Origin: a virus
Taxonomy: Duplodnaviria; Heunggongvirae; Uroviricota; Caudoviricetes
DNA length: 51,123 nt
Direction: 5' to 3' (one strand)
Virus record (IMG/VR): IMGVR_UViG_638341087_000015
Location: 1 to 51,123 of that record
The translations under genes and the position numbers were made by a program. Below are positions 3,056-20,507 of this stretch, one piece after another (position 1 is the stretch's first letter; each line of letters starts with the position of its first letter). Below the pieces are notes generated by a model. That model saw only the letters and a program-made list of their open reading frames with translations, made no database searches and was not told the DNA's origin.

Positions 3056-6000
3056 TCAGATGCTCAGTGCTTCAAGACGACGAAGATCAAAGTCGTTTAA
3101 TTCGTCGGTATAACTTTCGGTAATCGGTGCTGGCCAGTTGTTTGTCTCCAGGGCTTCGTTTATCTGGCGTAGCGTCCGGCGATATTCCTGTCGACCAAGT
3201 TCCAGGAGTTCCTGCGAGGCTTCCACGACTGCCACCCAGTGATAGCCAGCATCTTTGTTGACGAAGATCCAGAAAAATTTGTCCAGGTTTGCCACATCGC
3301 AATACATTGCGGCGCTGAGGTGATAATCACGCTCAATAATTTCACGGTGCAGGCGATCTTTAAGTCGTTCCTGTCGCACATAACCGAGGCTGACTGACTT
3401 CACGTCAGCGCAAATGCTTTCGTATGGCAGCCGGATTTCGATATCAGGACGGACCCTGATTTCCAGCCCGGTTTCTTCATCAAACCCGAAATAGCTGATT
3501 TCAGATTTGCGATCCGGGTGGTTGAGTAGCCTTGCTGCATCGGTATTGTTTTGCAGTGCCGCGTGAATATTTTTTGCCTGTTCATACATCTCCGGACTGA
3601 TAAACGTTTTCCCGGCATTTTCTTCTTGCTGGCGTTTTTGCCAGTCCTCCAGTGTCACCAGTTCCGGGCGAATTTTCCGTGCGATTTCGGTTAATTGCTC
3701 TTTTGTGCCACTGATGTTGTAAGGCAAAGATTTAGCACGTTCTTTTTTTGCCAGTTCTGGGTCTACAGTTTCAATTTGATCCAGAAGCTGCTCCCGTGCT
3801 CCACTGGTTTTCAACAGAGGAGGGAGGCTTGCGTTGTATTCTTTAATACAGGCTTTCATTGCTGATGCTGTGTGTTTTTCCCCCTCAGGAATACGCCGAA
3901 ATTCCACCGGAAGCGAACCGTAAAGGATGCCTGTTTCTTCGGCCCCGGCACTTACAGACAGTGGCTGTATAAGAGTGCTGTTGTAGCTTTCGATCCACTC
4001 TTTCATCTGCTCTGGTGTCATCAGTGCTGGCAGACTGGCATTGTGTTTTTTAATGATGGCGATCAGTTCGCTAGAAGTAGTAACCACATATTCAGGAACC
4101 GGTACCGGAATGGCATATTCATCAGCGAATTTATCCGTTTCCAGAACATAGCTGTGAATGATCCGCCCACGCAGCAGTGCATCACTTTCCTCGTTCGGAA
4201 TAGTTCCGGCAATGTGCCGTCCGTGGTAATACATCAGGCTGATACGGGCATCCTTCAGCATCGTGCTGCTTATTCCGTTGGCGGAGTGATAAACCTCGTT
4301 CGGGAGGTTTTCATAGCGGCCAGGCTCGAAATATGACGGCCACATGATTTCAGTTGCTACAGGAGCTGACGCTTCACCAGTTTCATCACTGCAATCACGA
4401 TGCGGATCGCTGCCAGCATTCTCATTGTGCGGATGTTCAGCGCCTTCCATTTCCACCGGATCTTTTTCCTTAGCTTCAACCTGATTCTCTTCATCGAATG
4501 TTTCCTGGTATGTTGCGTCGCCCGTCACCGCCCCACAGTCAGGGCAGTTATCTCCGCCAGTCTGACCGCAGGCATTGCAGACTATTTCCGGTTCCTGTTG
4601 CACTACTGCCTCAGGTTGTTTCACATCCGGGCTGGTTTTTTCCGTTTCTGGCTGGTTCTGGTACACAGAATCGCGAGTCTGGATCCCCTTAACCCATTTC
4701 GGATCGTTCGGGTCGCTAACTCCGTCAACAAATTCACCACGTGATGCAGCAAGCAATTTATCGGCATCGACAGGATTTTTTGATGGAATGTTTTTCCGGG
4801 CTTCATGGAGTTCTGCCCGCAGTTCCTGATATTTCGCATCAACAGAATTTACCTGTGACTGAGCATCCAGCGGCTGCGTGTCCTGATGATGTTCAGTTGC
4901 GTCCGGTTCCATTGTTTCAGCCTCTCCCTGTTCAACTGCCGTTGTTCCAGATGGTTGCGGTTTTTCTTCATCATCCTGTTTTCCTTCTTCTGTTACTCGC
5001 TGCGGCATCGGGGCAGAGGAGCGACCGCAGGCAATATCCACGATTTCCGGATCAGGGTTGGCATGATCGGTTTCAGTCAGTACTTTGTTCAGATATTCAG
5101 TGACGTGCGCGGGGATGACCTCGATCCCAATTGGTGCTTCTTTTACGGACGCAACCACGATGGCGCGGGAATAATCCAGCCCGCCAGGCATGGTGATGAA
5201 TTTGTCGCGGAAAACAGAAAAGGGCGGTTTATTTTCAGCGATAATTTCCTCAATGCGTTTAGCGTGTGCCGGATGAAGGTTATAGATGTCCAGATCCATT
5301 GAACGGGCCAGTACGCCAGTGGCTACGTCGCGCGCCAGTGACGTCAGATCGTGTACGAAACCTTCGCCGCGATCGGTGAGGTTTCCGCCGCCAGCATTAG
5401 CACCGGAAGCCGTGCGAGTGATGTGTGAAACACGATTACCCTTCATCCACTCTTTTGTCAGCAGTCCTCGATCGGTGTAGTCAGCGTTCAGGTATGCTTC
5501 GAAAAAAGCAGTTATCAGTCCCAGGTTTGAATTACCAGGATTAGGGAAAACTTTGTCAGTGTCACGAACCAGTTTGTGGAGATCGCGAATTTCCAGCGGG
5601 TCGAGCAGGCTGGTTTTGTGGGAAACAGCCAGGGCAGTAACAGCCGGTAGTTCTTCAGCCCGAGCAATGTGTAATGCCTGGAGTCCGTCGCGTGAAACGT
5701 GCGTTACCGGTTTTTCGCTGCCGTGTTGAGCAAGCCAACGAATGGGCAGTTCCTGGCCAGAAATTGGGAGTAGCATATTCTCCTCAATCTCAGTCATGTC
5801 TTCGCCGTTGACGTTGGTATTGCCTTGATAGTGAGCGTTGTCTGGTGCTGCTCCCGGTTTTAGTTCCCATGTCATGGAGTCTTTGCTGAGTTGATAGCGT
5901 TCACTCCAGGTAAAATCGATCTCACCTTCAGCGGGCAGGTCATTAACGACAGGAAAATTCGTGGCAACAGCTTTAAAATAGCTGCTCAGTTTTTTACCTG

Positions 6001-16112: not shown

Positions 16113-16457
16113 TAACACTTCCTTAATTTTCCCTTAACAATTTAGGGTGCTAAACTTTTTTGCGCAGTTTACACAAAAAAATAGTGCGTACGCAAAAACT
16201 ATCTAACATGATGAGCTTTAACCGGGAAATTTGTATATGTTGTGAGCATAAAGTTGGCTGAGAAATTTAAAACGGGTAGAATGACTGCGGGTGCTTGAGG
16301 CTATCTGCCTCGGGCATGAACACCAAAGGCAGATAGAGAAAAGCCCCAGTTAACATTACGCGTCCTGCAAGACGCTTAACATTAATCTGAGGCCAATTTC
16401 ATGCTTTGCACATGTAGGTTAGCCTCTTACGTGCCGAAAGGCAAGGAGAAGCAGGCT

Positions 16458-16613
16458 ATGAAGCAGCAAAAGGCGATGTTAATCGCCCTGATCGTCATCT
16501 GTTTAACCGTCATAGTGACGGCACTGGTAACGAGGAAAGACCTCTGCGAGGTACGAATCCGAACCGGCCAGACGGAGGTCGCTGTCTTCACAGCTTACGA
16601 ACCTGAGGAGTAA
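16458..16613 (+). CDS. hok: Hok/Gef family type I toxin (51 aa)
   Basis: MKQQKAMLIALIVICLTVIVTALVTRKDLCEVRIRTGQTEVAVFTAYEPEE matches my recollection of HokD/RelF; AAGGAG RBS; GC-rich structured leader and trailer typical of hok mRNAs. Confidence 0.85.
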   Translation: MKQQKAMLIALIVICLTVIVTALVTRKDLCEVRIRTGQTEVAVFTAYEPEE

Positions 16614-17969: not shown

Positions 17970-18508
17970 TTTACCCAACGAATACAGGAAAAAGCGGAGA
18001 ACACCTTCGTCTCACCACGCTGGAAAGTGTCTGGATTCAGGGAAAACTACGTATGTGGGGGCGCTGGTCGTATATTGGCGGCGGTAAGACGGGGAATATG
18101 TTCAACCAGTTGTTGGCCTCTAAAAAGCTGACAAAAACGGCAATTAACGAGGCGCTCCGGAGGATGAAAAAAGCAGGTCTGAACAAGTCTGAACTTGAGG
18201 CTTTTTTGCGGGATATGATTAACGGTAAGCAAAAGAGCTGGCTGGCGCATTGTACTGATGCAGAGGCGTTATGTATTGATCGGGTCATAAGTCAGGTGCT
18301 GGCAGAGCATCCAGGATTGATTAGCGTCCTTCGGCAACGGTATGAGGGGCGGGGGATGACCAAACGCAAAATGGCTGAATTGCTAAATGATGCACACCCA
18401 GAGTGGTGTTTTAGCACATGCGAAAAGCGAATTGCTAATTGGTTGGCCGTTGCTGAGTATGCGCTATACATTCCCATGCGAGAATCATTCTCTCAAAAAA
18501 CGGCTTGA
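17966..18508 (+). CDS. Putative late-gene antiterminator Q (180 aa)
   Basis: ATG at 17966 preceded by AAGGAGGG; last gene before the tRNAs and lysis cassette, the canonical Q position. Confidence 0.5.
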   Translation: MIYPTNTGKSGEHLRLTTLESVWIQGKLRMWGRWSYIGGGKTGNMFNQLLASKKLTKTAINEALRRMKKAGLNKSELEAFLRDMINGKQKSWLAHCTDAEALCIDRVISQVLAEHPGLISVLRQRYEGRGMTKRKMAELLNDAHPEWCFSTCEKRIANWLAVAEYALYIPMRESFSQKTA

Positions 18509-18594
18509 TTTTTTACGCATAAACTGCTTCAATTTTGCTACGCTTCGCAAAGCTGTATCGCGAGGCGAATCAAGCGCAATTAAACTTTAATAGA

Positions 18595-18620
18595 ACCCGC
18601 CATCGAGCGGGTTTTGTTGT
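18595..18620 (+). terminator. Intrinsic terminator-like hairpin downstream of Q
   Basis: acccgc-catcga-gcgggt stem-loop followed by a T-rich tract. Confidence 0.4.
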
Positions 18621-18861
18621 TTCTGTGGTGTGATATCAGAAACGACATTTAATCATCGCCTTCAAAATAAATTTATTTATATGTTGTTGTATATATTTTA
18701 AGTGAAAGTGAATTATTCACATAAAATAAAAACATATAAATAAATTTACATAACTTGACGCAAACTGTTGTTGCGATTGGAATATTAAATCGTATCATCG
18801 AAAACGGTTCTGAGGGGGAACTCTTCTTTGAACGGTGATATCGCTCCCCTGAAGAACCAAT

Positions 18862-18937
<76 letters not shown>

Positions 18938-18940
18938 TAT

Positions 18941-19015
<75 letters not shown>

Positions 19016-19381
19016 GCATTTGAAACAAGCCTTATTGTATTACGGCACTGGCGTATTTTTTTATTACGTGGGAGCAGGTTGTTTTGAAAAAGCATTCTGT
19101 TCTCTGGCTATGATTTGAGGCCGGGTGTAGCCTCAGTGCTGATTTTTTTACGGCAGCAGAATGGTGCATTATCGGTGGAGATTTTGTATTTCCTGGCAGG
19201 GTCGGTGATGCATCATTCTGGTGTTGTAAATCGCACCACAGAGGCGCTCCTCAGTGCGAGGGTGGTTTAAAGAGTCGGTTTAGCGGGAAACCACAGTATC
19301 CATACAGCACGGAATACTTCGGGAGGCACCCGACGCCTCGGTTTAATAACAATTAAAAAATTCATCCCTTGCATTGACCAA

Positions 19382-19406
19382 CCGCCATATCTGGCGGTTT
19401 TTTTTA
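19382..19406 (+). terminator. Rho-independent terminator
   Basis: ccgcca-tatc-tggcgg hairpin followed by a run of eight T. Confidence 0.6.
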
Positions 19407-19794
19407 TTCCTTTCTCAGGACAAAAAAAGACACGAGCATCCAGGAATACTCGTGGGACAACGTCCTTTAGATAGCAATTTGCGAGAGGGTGAAAAGTAGC
19501 GCGGTCGTCGGATTAAGACCGCGGGACAAAGTCCATGAAGAATAATAAGTATTGGCCCCCTTCTGGGGACATGTTCATACTACTAAGCTTCAGAAGTGGT
19601 TTAAATCATCAAATTAACCTTAATTTACGATAAGTCTTATTTCATTTCTTTGCGCCACATCTGGCGCGCATCAAATAACGCCACGCAAAGGGCATCTGCG
19701 GATGCCGGTGCTTTTGACGGGGTGTTTTTTACGGGCCGCTGGTGGCCATTTTTTGTTTCCATTACACAGCGCCCGCATCTGCGAGGTGGGGGTT

Positions 19795-20010
19795 ATGAAA
19801 TCCATGGATAAGTTAACAACGGGTGTCGCCTATGGCACCTCCGCAGGCAGTGCTGGCTACTGGTTTTTACAGTTGCTCGATAGAGTAACTCCGTCACAGT
19901 GGGCTGCAATCGGTGTGCTGGGTAGTCTGGTTTTTGGCCTGCTGACGTACCTGACAAACCTTTATTTCAAGATTAAAGAAGATAAGCGCAAGGCTGCGAG
20001 AGGTGAATAA
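19795..20010 (+). CDS. Class II holin, phage-21 S-like pinholin (71 aa)
   Basis: MKSMDK...[13 protein letters not shown]...[13 protein letters not shown] matches my recollection of S21; tracked ORF start 19702 lies in hairpin-rich non-coding sequence. Confidence 0.8.
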
Positions 20011-20507
20011 TGCCTCCATCATTACGAAAAGCCGTTGCTGCTGCTATTGGTGGCGGAGCAATTGCTATAGCATCAGTGTTAATCACTGGCCCAAGTGGTA
20101 ACGATGGTCTGGAAGGTGTCAGCTACATACCATACAAAGATATTGTTGGTGTATGGACTGTATGTCACGGGCATACAGGAAAAGACATCATGCTCGGTAA
20201 AACGTATACCAAAGCAGAATGCAAAGCACTCTTGAATAAAGACCTTGCCACTGTCGCCAGACAAATTAACCCGTACATCAAAGTCGATATACCGGAAACA
20301 ACGCGCGGCGCTCTTTACTCATTCGTTTACAACGTGGGTGCTGGCAATTTCAGAACATCGACGCTTCTTCGCAAAATAAACCAGGGCGATATCAAAGGCG
20401 CATGTGATCAGCTACGTCGCTGGACATATGCTGGCGGTAAGCAATGGAAAGGTCTCATGACTCGTCGTGAGATTGAGCGTGAAATCTGTTTGTGGGGTCA
20501 GCAATGA
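20010..20507 (+). CDS. SAR endolysin (lysozyme, phage-21 R-like)
   Basis: N-terminal Gly/Ala-rich signal-anchor-release segment then lysozyme core; start overlaps the holin stop (TAATG). Confidence 0.8.

Follow-up and report, generated by a model that had tools for sequence, protein, structure and literature searches.

The 780-bp gap between the tRNA genes and the holin gene in the 51,123-nt stretch of DNA analysed here (the window) most likely encodes conserved, folded non-coding RNAs that alternate between the two strands and are diverged kin of the small-RNA clusters of Stx phages. The host element is a Rac-like lambdoid prophage of E. coli, and the gap is its "moron" (extra-gene) slot. 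Comparison of ~65 distinct E. coli prophage copies reveals three modules within the spacer (19016-19794), namely A on the plus strand, B on the minus strand and C on the plus strand (Table 1). The initial annotation described the slot as empty, which is not the case since the spacer is conserved and structured; the small RNA that it offered as one option is now the best-supported reading, on account of family alignments, paired base changes and a resemblance to STnc100 and PasD. As the spacer is a diverged version of sRNA clusters already known from Stx phages, the finding is useful rather than radically new.

Small RNAs encoded between Q and the holin gene of prophages (AsxR, AgvB, PasA-D, STnc100 and StxS) rewire host regulation in pathogenic E. 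coli. The locus described here would extend this repertoire to Rac-like and phiP27-like prophages. About 6-7% of the complete genomes of E. coli carry such prophages, commensal, animal and ETEC strains among them, and the region there is almost never annotated or is given spurious "hypothetical protein" calls. A covariance model of the family would clear such false ORF calls from genome annotation.

Table 1. Features of the spacer and its flanks (window coordinates)
Feature	Position	Strand	Basis
Probable late promoter PR', TTGATT-17-TTCAAT	~18505-18533	+	sequence only
tR'-like terminator hairpin	18588-18619	+	folding, 933W similarity
tRNA-Thr(UGU)	18862-18937	+	ARAGORN; Rfam tRNA
tRNA-Gly(UCC)	18941-19015	+	ARAGORN; Rfam tRNA
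Module A: domain D0, multi-branch, three hairpins; closing helix GCACUG 19045-19050 / CAGUGC 19134-19139	19043-19141	+	folding
Module A: long hairpin LH, 85 nt, 34 bp, ~8 G·U pairs	19147-19231	+	folding, alignment
Module A: STnc100/PasD-like domain	19236-19410	+	Rfam alignment, RNAalifold, covariance model
Helix P1, long-range	19241-19246 / 19334-19339	+	RNAalifold
Hairpin P2	19250-19260	+	inside P1
Hairpin P3	19262-19294	+	inside P1
Hairpin P4	19295-19318	+	inside P1
Hairpin P5 (CGGGAGGCACCCG)	19320-19332	+	inside P1
A/U-rich linker	19340-19379	+	between P1 and terminator
Intrinsic terminator of module A, loop UAUC, stem 19380-19387 / 19392-19399	19380-19405	+	terminator scan, folding
Module B, unit 1: variable 5' stretch, small hairpin, terminator hairpin, seven U	19421-19499	-	terminator scan, alignment
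Module B, unit 2: 5' hairpin, U/A-rich single-stranded stretch, small hairpin, terminator-like hairpin	19492-19572	-	folding, alignment
Candidate sigma-70 promoter, -35 TTTAAA 19605-19600, 17-nt spacer, -10 TAGTAT 19582-19577	19577-19605	-	alignment reading
Module C: hairpin C1, gcgcca-catc-tggcgc	19652-19667	+	folding, alignment
Module C: hairpin C2, AAAG-GGCAUC-UGCG-GAUGCC-(GGUG)-CUUU	19687-19712	+	folding, alignment
Module C: weak intrinsic terminator C3, GGCC-GCUGGU-GGCC, one A, six U	19734-19754	+	terminator scan
Holin gene essD, 71 aa, starts MKSM	19795-20010	+	RefSeq, 216 nt in near-identical loci

Genomic context and distribution

In the window, a Q-like gene (stop at 18508) is followed by the tRNA genes, which score 73.8 and 65.6 bits with the Rfam tRNA model, then by module A and the holin gene. 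Module A is attached to this tRNA array: in 64 of the 65 distinct contexts, the conserved module was found ~160 nt past a tRNA-Gly that closes an array of 1-4 tRNAs, and the linkage to tRNA-Gly also holds in copies L104, L105 and L106. The ORF start at 19702 that had been tracked in the initial annotation does lie inside the spacer, but it is merely an upstream in-frame ATG that yields a longer ORF (19702-20010), and the holin gene starts where RefSeq places essD. The proposed equivalence of this slot with the one that carries the toxin genes in Stx phages agrees with the gene orders of 933W (Q, pR', qut, terminator, tRNA promoter, tRNAs, stx2AB, STnc100, AsxR and, later, holin S) and phiP27 (tRNAs, stx2e, module C, holin). 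Comparison of these two layouts suggests that the Shiga-toxin genes may have been inserted next to an older group of non-coding RNAs and leader elements, on the side that faces the phage tRNA array.

Matches to the spacer at 80-100% identity occur in 373 of 5426 complete E. coli genomes, where they are nearly always unannotated, and in 199 of these the match covers at least 80% of its length. The 25-mer from the hairpin loop of module A is present in 90 IMG/VR DNA stretches. When 185,579 species, each represented by a single genome, were scanned with a 22-mer from the same loop, the sole find was a near-identical copy in Escherichia ruysiae, so the element looks confined to Escherichia. The region is strongly mosaic among copies.

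The spacer is non-coding, as the initial annotation had it. Each of its ORFs of at least 30 aa is intact in just 11-33 of the 65 distinct homologous copies, and a Pfam search of the spacer ORFs returned no match while the DUF3927 positive control was matched. The ORFs annotated in relatives lie on either strand in frames that depend on the record and run through the terminator, and T-runs commonly vary by one nucleotide in length between copies. The DUF3927 gene of RM8082 overlaps module C by only ~5 nt, at the end of the gene.

As a whole, the plus strand of the spacer folds at -273 kcal/mol compared with -229 +/- 8 for shuffled sequences (z -5.6). Promoter and terminator prediction, suggested in the initial annotation, identified six terminator-like sites between 18400 and 20100, where shuffled sequences give 2.0 +/- 1.4, and no plus-strand sigma-70-like site in the spacer. 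All three hairpins that had been named there exist at their positions (19382-19406, 19652-19667 and 19691-19706), and each folds below its shuffles, as detailed for modules A and C. The strongest structure of the spacer (19147-19231) and a minus-strand terminator at 19431-19454 had been overlooked.

Structure and conservation of the three modules

The strand assignment of each module is supported by paired-base changes together with the asymmetry of G·U pairs. The pairing statistics given here are inflated, because the structures were predicted from the same alignments that were used to test them, and the aligned copies are mostly close kin (80-100% identity). For module A, RNAalifold predicts 70 pairs in 36 distinct copies with 98.5% of cells paired, whereas control alignments in which the 3' partner was slid by 1-3 columns give 41-54%. 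Seven of these pairs are changed on both sides, amounting to 37 cells against 11 +/- 2.4 in shuffled data, a number that none of 500 shuffles reached. The plus strand of the module folds at -97.2 kcal/mol (z -5.5) versus -73.8 kcal/mol (z -1.9) for the minus strand, and 358 cells are G·U on the plus strand versus 11 on the minus strand.

Domain D0 folds at -41.3 kcal/mol (z -5.2) and contains three hairpins inside its closing helix in 31 of 32 distinct variants, a layout that is kept even in types with just ~35% similarity in their inner sequence, such as L001b, L010 and L104; since the closing helix was required by the extraction pattern, only this inner architecture counts as evidence. The long hairpin LH is the most stable element, at -42.5 kcal/mol (z -8.7). 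Its main 28-pair stem segment has 99% of cells paired in 36 distinct copies, with double changes from A-U to G-C and many single changes among G·U, A-U and G-C. The apical region (19177-19201) does not vary among the close copies; however, the 25-nt loop served as the search pattern for viral contigs, so its invariance there arises partly by construction and is independent only in ~10 copies obtained by BLAST. In the 69% identical L105 copy, the LH stem and helix P1 are maintained by further paired changes. The loop, invariant in the main lineage, is wholly replaced in L105 by an unrelated one. A sigma-54 site in the LH loop was considered and rejected, the TGGCA...TGCA spacing being 3 nt too long.

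Further downstream, P1 carries double changes from C-G to U-A in 12 copies and P4 also has double changes, as judged by RNAalifold and pair counts. The "strong terminator" reported at 19382-19406 proves to be a genuine conserved intrinsic-terminator motif: ccgcca-tatc-tggcgg (19382-19397) is followed by eight T/U (19398-19405), two extra A-U pairs widen the stem, and the hairpin folds at -12.4 kcal/mol (z -4.8), as well as which none of 200 shuffles folds. Its stem is present in all copies, with variation confined to the loop and closing pair (CCGCC-GUAUC-AGGCGG, CCGCCUCCACUGGGCGG). At the other end of the module, a promoter scan from tRNA-Gly to LH (19016-19146) reported no promoter-like site, and inspection of the same interval by eye found nothing convincing. 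The T-runs at 19056-19062 and 19142-19148 lie between tRNA-Gly and the long hairpin, and they might cause a partial stop of transcription coming from the tRNAs.

At gathering thresholds, Rfam recognises the two tRNAs and nothing else in the region, and at relaxed thresholds STnc100 is the only weak match that recurs across homologs; others (mir-983, STnc240, Phe_leader and others) were set aside as reflecting the long hairpin or the terminator alone. The STnc100 model (RF02076) aligns over its full length (positions 1-206) with 19213-19409 at 19.9 bits (E 0.015-0.12, depending on search size), and four homologs score 27.3 (L003), 22.9 (L002), 22.6 (L006) and 21.7 bits (L001); neither the window nor these homologs reach the gathering score of 47 bits, and the genuine STnc100 of 933W scores 207.7 bits. 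In the reverse direction, a covariance model built from the window family (R1) was searched against 27 kb, where its best two matches were PasD2 of E2348/69 (L100, 1656-1832; 20.1 bits, E 4e-4) and STnc100 of 933W (L099, 3304-3483; 19.0 bits, E 7.5e-4), both full length and on the correct strand, scores that are slightly above a background of up to 17.5 bits elsewhere in the window and have rough E-values. The first match coincides with PasD2 as placed by RIL-seq (741157-741328), and the second falls inside the Rfam STnc100 match in 933W (3278-3483). The helices that resemble STnc100 were recovered independently by RNAalifold in 36 copies. When the spacer was compared with the 933W and E2348/69 loci by BLAST at low stringency, the only similarities were a 13-mer, the CGGGAGGCACCCG motif that is identical to 933W STnc100 over 13 nt, and the tR'-like terminator. 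The model matches, which lie below the Rfam threshold, thus point to a 3' domain of module A that is probably distantly related to the prophage sRNAs STnc100 and PasD.

Module B is missing from about one third of contexts and, read on the minus strand, has nine pairs with double changes. Unit 1 was found by the terminator scan of the minus strand and folds at -16.2 kcal/mol (z -3.9); it consists of a 5' stretch (19499-19467), the hairpin GGAC-GUU-GUCC (19465-19455), the terminator hairpin (19454-19431) and a U-run (19428-19422). Between its two alleles the 5' stretch varies but both 3' hairpins persist, GGAC/GUCC becoming UGGC/GCCA, and the terminator shows double changes from A-U to G-C in nine copies and from G-C to A-U in six. 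Pairing amounts to 99.4% on the minus strand versus 93.9% on the plus strand. Unit 2 folds at -25.6 kcal/mol (z -3.5) and comprises a 5' hairpin (19570-19555), GGAC-UUU-GUCC (19534-19524) and a terminator-like hairpin (19523-19500) that is followed by CUACUUUU, or by seven U in the other allele. Double changes occur in its 5' hairpin (C-G to U-A, five copies) and in the 19523-19500 hairpin (U-A to C-G, nine copies), and its U·G pairs are valid on the minus strand only.

A minus-strand promoter, recognised by reading the alignment, may drive module B from a start near 19570. Its -35 element is invariant in 24 copies and its -10 element is TAGTAT in 16 and TAATAT in eight; in the window it matches 8 of 12 consensus positions, which is below the scan threshold. 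[quoted passage not shown] For unit 1, no convincing promoter of its own was found.

Module C shows 97.3% pairing on the plus strand versus 84.8% on the minus strand. Hairpin C1 (-10.8 kcal/mol, z -3.9) carries paired C-G to U-A changes at two stem positions; with no U-run behind it on the plus or the minus strand, it cannot be a terminator. The third of the previously named hairpins, ggcatc-tgcg-gatgcc (19691-19706; -11.1 kcal/mol, z -2.4), was correctly located but does not stand alone, being the tip of the larger conserved hairpin C2. The latter is shared with phiP27 and shows G·U variation valid for the plus strand; its 6-nt gatgcc arm is absent from many copies, and those still pair AAAGGCAUC/GGUGCCUUU. 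The terminator C3, weak alone (-7.5 kcal/mol, z -0.6), is located ~40 nt before the start codon of the holin gene. Its sequence hardly varies among 29 copies, which precede two unrelated types of holin, or in phiP27, and its 3' end overlaps an annotated terminator of phage Ayreon; in 933W and E2348/69 a terminator-like hairpin with a T-run likewise precedes the holin gene by ~40-60 nt. The whole module, most likely a structured pre-holin leader with a weak terminator, is conserved ahead of two unrelated holin families and in the Stx2e phage phiP27. Identity with PasA or PasC was considered and dropped, as the PasA and PasD fragments in the RIL-seq supplement are unlike module C.

A working model and its alternatives

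Our working model, which we consider probable, is that the spacer is a non-coding RNA island whose three modules serve as small RNAs, leader and insulator. Module A is most likely transcribed along with tRNA-Thr and tRNA-Gly as a 3' trailer that ends at its terminator, from which RNase P, RNase E or RNase III would probably cut at least one stable RNA. If PasD is a guide, the A/U-rich linker is likely to be a base-pairing "seed", and the apical loop of LH may be a second one. Module B would supply one or two sRNA-like units, with the hairpin-hairpin-U-tail ending typical of Hfq-dependent sRNAs, that converge on module A as AsxR does on STnc100 in Stx2 phages; 5' stretches that differ by allele would be expected of exchangeable target-recognition regions. 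During lysogeny, the terminators of modules A and C may halt transcription from constitutive tRNA and sRNA promoters short of the lysis genes, while the sRNAs would have their trans targets among host or phage RNAs. Once the prophage is induced, RNA polymerase that starts at PR' and is modified by Q is expected to pass all terminators of the spacer. A search of the 51-kb window for trans targets found only chance-level 9-11-mers complementary to the loop, the linker and the minus-strand 5' stretches. Should module A prove to be a tRNA trailer, the locus would allow the coupling of an sRNA to the expression of phage tRNAs to be tested.

A more ambitious proposal, which we hold only tentatively, is that module A represents a new class of phage RNA coupled to tRNA arrays, in which a ~390-nt trailer is cut by RNase P, E and III into trans-acting RNAs, the stems are under selection, the loop and linker act as exchangeable specificity cassettes, and the minus-strand units form an antagonist or partner pair. 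Such a composite trailer would join phage tRNA supply and host regulation in one transcript.

The spacer has at least three plus-strand terminator-like motifs (19380-19405, 19734-19754 and a weaker one at 19115-19148), comparable terminators precede the holin gene in 933W, E2348/69 and Ayreon, and both the dispensability of module B and the mosaic character of the region would fit a stack of terminators or insulators mixed with recombination scars, which Q overrides and which yields no trans-acting RNA. We regard this as unlikely. A hairpin and a U-run would suffice for insulation, which leaves the conservation of LH, D0 and the five STnc100-like helices through paired changes unexplained; the minus-strand terminators face away from the lysis genes; and the homologous PasD and AsxR are abundant Hfq-bound sRNAs, with a demonstrated target in the case of AsxR.

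It is also rather improbable that module A is a cis-acting element for processing or stability of the phage tRNA operon, providing entry to or protection from RNase P, III or E, and not a regulator. This would account for its strict association with the tRNA-Gly that closes arrays of varied composition, for its start ~27 nt past the tRNA, and for the cloverleaf-like shape of D0 with its closing helix and three hairpins. The 34-bp duplex of LH would suit RNase III, such a duplex being the sort of substrate cut by this enzyme. However, the relatives of the STnc100-like domain are free-standing sRNAs that are not adjacent to tRNAs, phages can express their tRNAs without a trailer of this kind, as shown by the plain terminator that closes the tRNA array of 933W, and D0 is recognised neither by ARAGORN nor by the Rfam tRNA model. 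D0 as a tRNA pseudogene was rejected for want of supporting features, as were an HK022 put-like antiterminator RNA, a type I toxin-antitoxin locus and a leader-peptide attenuator.

The initial annotation also raised the possibility that the spacer holds late-control elements, that is, the Q-dependent PR', qut site and tR' terminator. In lambda, tR' precedes S, and strong terminators, including the one at 19380-19405, do lie upstream of the lysis genes here. PR', qut and tR' are nevertheless expected directly downstream of the Q gene, a position that the spacer does not occupy, whereas a promoter-like site and a hairpin of -17.4 kcal/mol (z -5.2) whose 28-nt match to the 933W terminator annotated after pR'/qut has 82% identity are found right after the Q-like gene (18505-18619), in the same order from Q to the tRNAs as in 933W. 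The late promoter, as read from its sequence motifs, and its terminator are therefore most likely upstream of the tRNAs and outside the spacer. The scan for plus-strand sigma-70-like promoters in the spacer was negative, and the modules are also present in phiP27-like phages, in which a methyltransferase gene and not Q precedes the tRNAs, making late control from within the spacer very unlikely.

Least tenable of all is a decayed protein-coding moron or pseudogene, or a spacer that still encodes small proteins, as the hypothetical proteins of 41-132 aa annotated in some genome records and a 15-codon ORF (19161-19208, MVHYRWRFCISWQGR) that is intact in 61 of 65 copies, which show several synonymous differences in its last two sense codons, might indicate, since, in addition to the inconsistent and mostly broken ORFs and the T-run changes described above, substitutions obey base-pairing with strand-specific G·U pairs rather than codon rules, the 15-codon ORF lacks a Shine-Dalgarno sequence and has its start codon hidden within the 34-bp stem, and the search pattern used to collect the copies fixed half of this ORF.

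Comparison with known RNAs and control regions

Among the closest known RNAs are STnc100 and the prophage sRNAs PasD1 and PasD2 (Pearl Mizrahi 2021, PMC8550237; Zhu, Shabalina and Storz 2026, doi 10.64898/2026.05.13.724894). The 3' domain of module A shares with them the Q-to-holin moron slot on the late-transcript strand, in a layout comparable to those of 933W and E2348/69, and an architecture in which a long-range helix surrounds a C-rich/G-rich hairpin, further hairpins and a CGGGAGGCACCCG-type hairpin (CGGGAGGC(A/G)CC), followed by an A/U-rich linker and a terminator. It differs in its scores of ~20-27 bits against a threshold of 47, in BLAST similarity that is limited to the 13-mer, and in linker ("seed") sequences unrelated to those of STnc100 and PasD. 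The neighbours differ as well: in the window, the domain is fused behind a multi-branch domain and a 34-bp hairpin that trail a tRNA array, while STnc100 lies 75 nt past stxB2 and PasD2 comes after a DUF3927 gene. Among these sRNAs, PasD and STnc100 adjoin Q while PasA and PasC adjoin the holin gene (Zhu et al. 2026, doi 10.64898/2026.05.13.724894).

Pairs of convergent sRNAs 3' of PR' have been described as conserved among lambdoid prophages (Tree et al. 2014, PMC4104026), and module B is placed in this manner at the moron site. In 933W, STnc100 on the plus strand ends at 3483 and the convergent AsxR runs from 3537 down to 3485 on the minus strand; similarly, the terminator of unit 1 faces that of module A at a distance of 15 nt (19406-19420). 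Module B also resembles AsxR and AgvB in its 3' ending of small hairpin, terminator and U-tail and in its allele-variable 5' stretch. It differs in having two tandem units in place of one and a predicted length of ~80 or ~150 nt versus 51-60 nt, and its sequence shows no similarity to AsxR or AgvB. The Rfam models of AsxR (RF02703) and AgvB (RF02702), which cover a conserved ~42-nt 3' region and score 88.1 and 40.9 bits in 933W, gave no match in 19017-19800 at E up to 10, and the Esr41 model had no match in the spacer either.

An RNA located directly past the last tRNA and before the operon terminator, with no promoter detected in between, is reminiscent of 3'ETS-leuZ, the sRNA cut from the trailer of the glyW-cysT-leuZ tRNA operon. 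Trailers of this type are short (~50-60 nt for 3'ETS-leuZ) and chromosomal, whereas module A is ~390 nt, multi-domain and phage-borne, and would be co-transcribed with its tRNAs. 3'ETS-leuZ is listed as an Hfq-associated sponge (doi 10.1101/2021.04.25.441314), and the sRNAs rrA, rrB and rrF are found at the ends of rRNA operons (PMC8144298).

A moron transcript as the source of an sRNA has a precedent in IpeX of the lambdoid prophage DLP12, whose holin is of the essD type, as in the window. IpeX differs in being derived from the nmpC transcript, and similarity of our locus to porin-carrying phages is restricted to the last ~50 nt before the holin gene (19741-19791). In the summary given in PMC12197685, IpeX is described as processed from the porin (nmpC) moron transcript of cryptic DLP12.

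The same source cites Sy et al. 2020 for StxS, which it describes as made by termination at tR', and a short RNA from PR' to tR' is predicted here at ~18540-18620, in line with late control in lambda by PR', qut and 6S RNA/tR'. Both systems also have intrinsic terminators between the Q gene and the lysis genes that Q-modified polymerase must pass. They differ in that the PR'/tR' unit of the window lies upstream of the tRNAs, and the terminators of the spacer belong to other transcription units.

A conserved non-coding spacer of modular composition

The window is a Rac-like lambdoid prophage of Escherichia coli. Rfam matches at gathering thresholds across the whole window are RalA (1557–1735; 215 bits), which is the RalR/RalA antitoxin RNA, sok (16289–16463; 116 bits), which belongs to a hok/sok-type locus immediately preceding the late-region genes, and two tRNAs; RalA and sok are known elements and confirm the Rac-like identity. 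The gene order is DUF1367, DUF1364, a DUF1133 protein (named antiterminator Q in other annotations; stop at 18508), tRNA-Thr, tRNA-Gly, the spacer (19016–19794), the holin gene essD, rrrD, the spanin genes and trkG. The ORF start at 19702 merely extends the holin ORF to an in-frame ATG further upstream. The EssD N-terminus reads MKSM (19795–19806), a dual-start motif resembling Met1-Lys2-Met3 of lambda S, which suggests that holin and antiholin are both produced from essD through two start codons.

The spacer is conserved yet not protein-coding. It is matched at 80–100% identity in 373 of 5426 complete E. coli genomes, over at least 80% of its length in 199 of these, and is almost always left unannotated. 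Strains carrying it include E. coli 042, LY180 and LH10-b-1. It also occurs in phage vB_EcoS-683R6 and, in two copies, in the LT-IIb prophage; 90 DNA stretches from the IMG/VR viral collection exactly match a 25-mer of its core, and a one-genome-per-species scan found the core in Escherichia ruysiae only, as a near-identical copy. ORFs annotated in some relatives lie on differing strands and in differing frames and run through the terminator. Each window ORF of at least 30 aa is intact in just 11–33 of 65 distinct copies, and a Pfam search of the spacer ORFs of this length gave no match, with the DUF3927 control matching. A 15-codon ORF (MVHYRWRFCISWQGR, 19161–19208) within the long hairpin is intact in 61 of 65 copies, half of it being fixed by the search pattern used to collect them. 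It contains three rare Arg codons (CGG, AGA, CGG), its start codon lies inside the stem and has no Shine-Dalgarno sequence, and where copies differ in the last two sense codons of this ORF, several of the differences are synonymous.

Folding of the whole spacer gives a z-score of −5.6, and a terminator scan of 18400–20100 found six terminator-like sites against 2.0 ± 1.4 expected. The three hairpins listed in the initial annotation were correctly placed and each beats shuffled sequence in folding, but the slot, described there as "empty" but structured, is not empty; it is a mosaic of three modules, A, B and C (Table). In other prophages the equivalent slot is occupied by TerB-family, DUF3927 and IraM genes (L104 2317–4430; L107 931–1984), bordered 3' by the holin and 5' by either a tRNA-Gly and long-hairpin unit or a methyltransferase gene, which indicates free module exchange at this site.

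Table. Features of the spacer and its flanks (window coordinates; free energies in kcal/mol)
Feature	Position	Strand	Details
Promoter-like site	directly after Q-like gene (feature 18505–18620)		TTGATT-17-TTCAAT
tR'-like terminator	18588–18619		−17.4, z −5.2
Candidate tRNA promoter	18771–18798		as in 933W
tRNA-Thr(UGU)	18862–18937		
tRNA-Gly(UCC)	18941–19015		
Module A	19016–19405	+	three domains and terminator
Multi-branch domain D0	19043–19141	+	three hairpins within closing helix GCACUG/CAGUGC; −41.3, z −5.2
Long hairpin (LH)	19147–19231	+	34 base pairs; −42.5, z −8.7
Third domain	19236–19379	+	helix 19241–19246/19334–19339 around four hairpins, then A/U-rich linker
Module A terminator	19380–19405	+	
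First listed hairpin	19382–19405		ccgcca-tatc-tggcgg and eight T; −12.4, z −4.8
Module B	19406–19640	−	two tandem units; in about two thirds of contexts
Module B unit 1	19465–19455, 19454–19431	−	hairpins; seven U at 19428–19422
Module B unit 2	19570–19555; 19534–19524, 19523–19500	−	5' hairpin; hairpins; then CUACUUUU
Candidate promoter before unit 2	19605–19577	−	TTTAAA, 17 nt, TAGTAT
Module C	about 19640–19760	+	directly upstream of holin
Hairpin C1 (second listed)	19652–19667	+	gcgcca-catc-tggcgc; −10.8, z −3.9; paired changes
Hairpin C2	19687–19712	+	third listed hairpin is its tip
Third listed hairpin	19691–19706		ggcatc-tgcg-gatgcc; −11.1, z −2.4
C3 terminator	19734–19754	+	weak, nearly invariant
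Holin essD	19795–20010		216-nt RefSeq essD maps there

The tRNA-linked module A

In 64 of 65 distinct contexts module A comes after tRNA-Gly, regardless of the composition of the tRNA array, and the same order is seen in three more loci retrieved by BLAST. RNAalifold on 36 distinct copies gave 70 pairs with 98.5% of cells paired, against 41–54% in controls where the 3' partner was slid by 1–3 columns. Both sides have changed in seven pairs, amounting to 37 cells compared with 11 ± 2.4 in shuffles, a count reached by none of 500 shuffles. The folding energy is −97.2 kcal/mol (z −5.5) for the plus strand and −73.8 (z −1.9) for the minus strand, and the predicted pairs hold 358 G·U cells on the plus strand versus just 11 on the minus strand. 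In a 69%-identical copy from strain VG48B2 (L105) the LH stem and P1, the long-range helix of the third domain, are kept through extra paired changes, and the LH loop is unrelated to that of the window. These results argue for module A being a folded plus-strand RNA.

The architecture of D0 is the same in variants whose inner sequence is just ∼35% similar. Its layout is cloverleaf-like, 82–95 nt long and starting ∼27 nt past tRNA-Gly in the tRNA array; neither ARAGORN nor the Rfam tRNA model recognised it. One possibility is that D0, as modelled, is a tRNA-like processing element in highly derived form. LH was absent from the initial list of hairpins. In a short form of module A, D0 and the 5' arm and loop of LH are kept and the third domain is replaced by ∼90 nt with its own terminator. 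The LT-IIb prophage (L001 1201–2019 and 3107–3740) and VG48B2 (L105 2204–2680 and 2991–3493) each have a tandem duplication of the unit made up of tRNA-Gly, module A and module C; in the first VG48B2 copy the tRNA-Gly is degenerate and the loop of the long hairpin is wholly different.

Modules B and C and the probable position of the late promoter

Each module B unit consists, on the minus strand, of a single-stranded stretch, a GGAC-NNN-GUCC hairpin, a terminator-type hairpin and a U-run; another allele of unit 2 has seven U in place of CUACUUUU. Both sides have changed in nine pairs, pairing is 99.4% on the minus strand versus 93.9% on the plus strand, and the two unit 1 alleles keep both hairpins with a 5' stretch that differs throughout. 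The candidate promoter before unit 2 agrees with the consensus at just 8 of 12 positions in the window, its second box being TAATAT in 8 of 24 copies, and unit 1 lacks a convincing promoter of its own. Module B is matched by neither the AsxR nor the AgvB model of Rfam.

Module C is found in nearly all copies examined, before two unrelated holin types (essD-like and a 130-aa "putative holin"), and also in the Stx2e phage phiP27. Its pairing is 97.3% on the plus strand versus 84.8% on the minus strand. C1 lacks a U-run and is therefore not a terminator, and a 9-bp C2 stem still forms in copies without the gatgcc arm. The module A terminator (AACCGCCAUAUCUGGCGGUU, 19380–19399) and C1 (UUGCGCCACAUCUGGCGCGC, 19650–19669) resemble each other, as do their counterparts in other variants, e.g. 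CCGCCGCACCAGGCGG and CGCCACACCCGGCG in L036. This likeness could stem from duplication, or from recombination between the two that gives forms without module B.

A late promoter or tR'-like element had been proposed within the spacer. Instead, the promoter-like site, retained despite differences at the 3' end of the Q gene, and a terminator with 82% identity across 28 nt to that annotated after pR'/qut in 933W adjoin the Q-like gene, which places PR' and tR' probably at 18505–18620, upstream of the tRNAs. The PR'-to-tR' RNA, predicted to be ∼75–80 nt in the lysogen, would be analogous by position to lambda 6S RNA and StxS of Stx phages. Of the initial reading, the small-RNA option is upheld as the probable one; the late promoter in the spacer and the empty slot are not.

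Proposed mechanism and relationship to known prophage small RNAs

From the structures, their conservation, strand polarity, tRNA linkage and lack of coding potential, all of which are observed, we infer the remainder of a mechanism. In the lysogen, transcription from the tRNA promoter would cover the tRNAs and a ∼390-nt trailer ending at the terminator at 19405. This trailer would be processed to an STnc100/PasD-like RNA and possibly also to an RNA derived from the hairpin, and one or two convergent sRNAs would be made from the candidate minus-strand promoter. The analogy with PasD, AsxR and AgvB suggests that the module A and B RNAs would be Hfq-dependent regulators or sponges; a search of the window for complementary sites found none above chance. 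The module A and C terminators would keep tRNA and sRNA transcription out of the lysis genes until induction, when Q-modified polymerase would transcribe past these terminators.

Rfam STnc100 (RF02076) aligns end to end with window 19213–19409 and with the equivalent place in four homologs, at 19.9–27.3 bits, below the gathering score of 47. The long-range helix is GAGGCG/CGCCUC in the window and CAUGGUG/CACCAUG in STnc100; a C-rich/G-rich hairpin, the hairpin CGGGAGGCACCCG, identical to 933W across 13 nt, the linker and the terminator align as well. Our own covariance model of the window family, R1, was searched with filters off against 27 kb of 933W, E2348/69, phiP27 and Ayreon. Its best two matches were PasD2 of E2348/69 (L100 1656–1832; RIL-seq coordinates 741157–741328; 20.1 bits, E 4e-4) and 933W L099 3304–3483 (19.0 bits, E 7.5e-4), inside the Rfam STnc100 match 3278–3483. 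These scores are just modestly higher than the background of up to 17.5 bits, which points to distant homology of the third domain to STnc100/PasD, not family membership. That PasD and STnc100, adjoining Q, share an ancestor was already concluded by Zhu, Shabalina and Storz 2026 (doi 10.64898/2026.05.13.724894).

In 933W, the convergent minus-strand AsxR (3537 down to 3485) comes immediately after plus-strand STnc100, which ends at 3483, a layout that modules A and B mirror, and a terminator-like hairpin with a T-run lies just upstream of the holin gene in both 933W and E2348/69. Convergent sRNA pairs 3' of PR' are a conserved feature of lambdoid prophages (Tree et al. 2014, PMC4104026). We regard the locus, whose main relevance is to annotation and to the tRNA-trailer hypothesis, as a tRNA-linked, divergent form of the prophage sRNA clusters already known.
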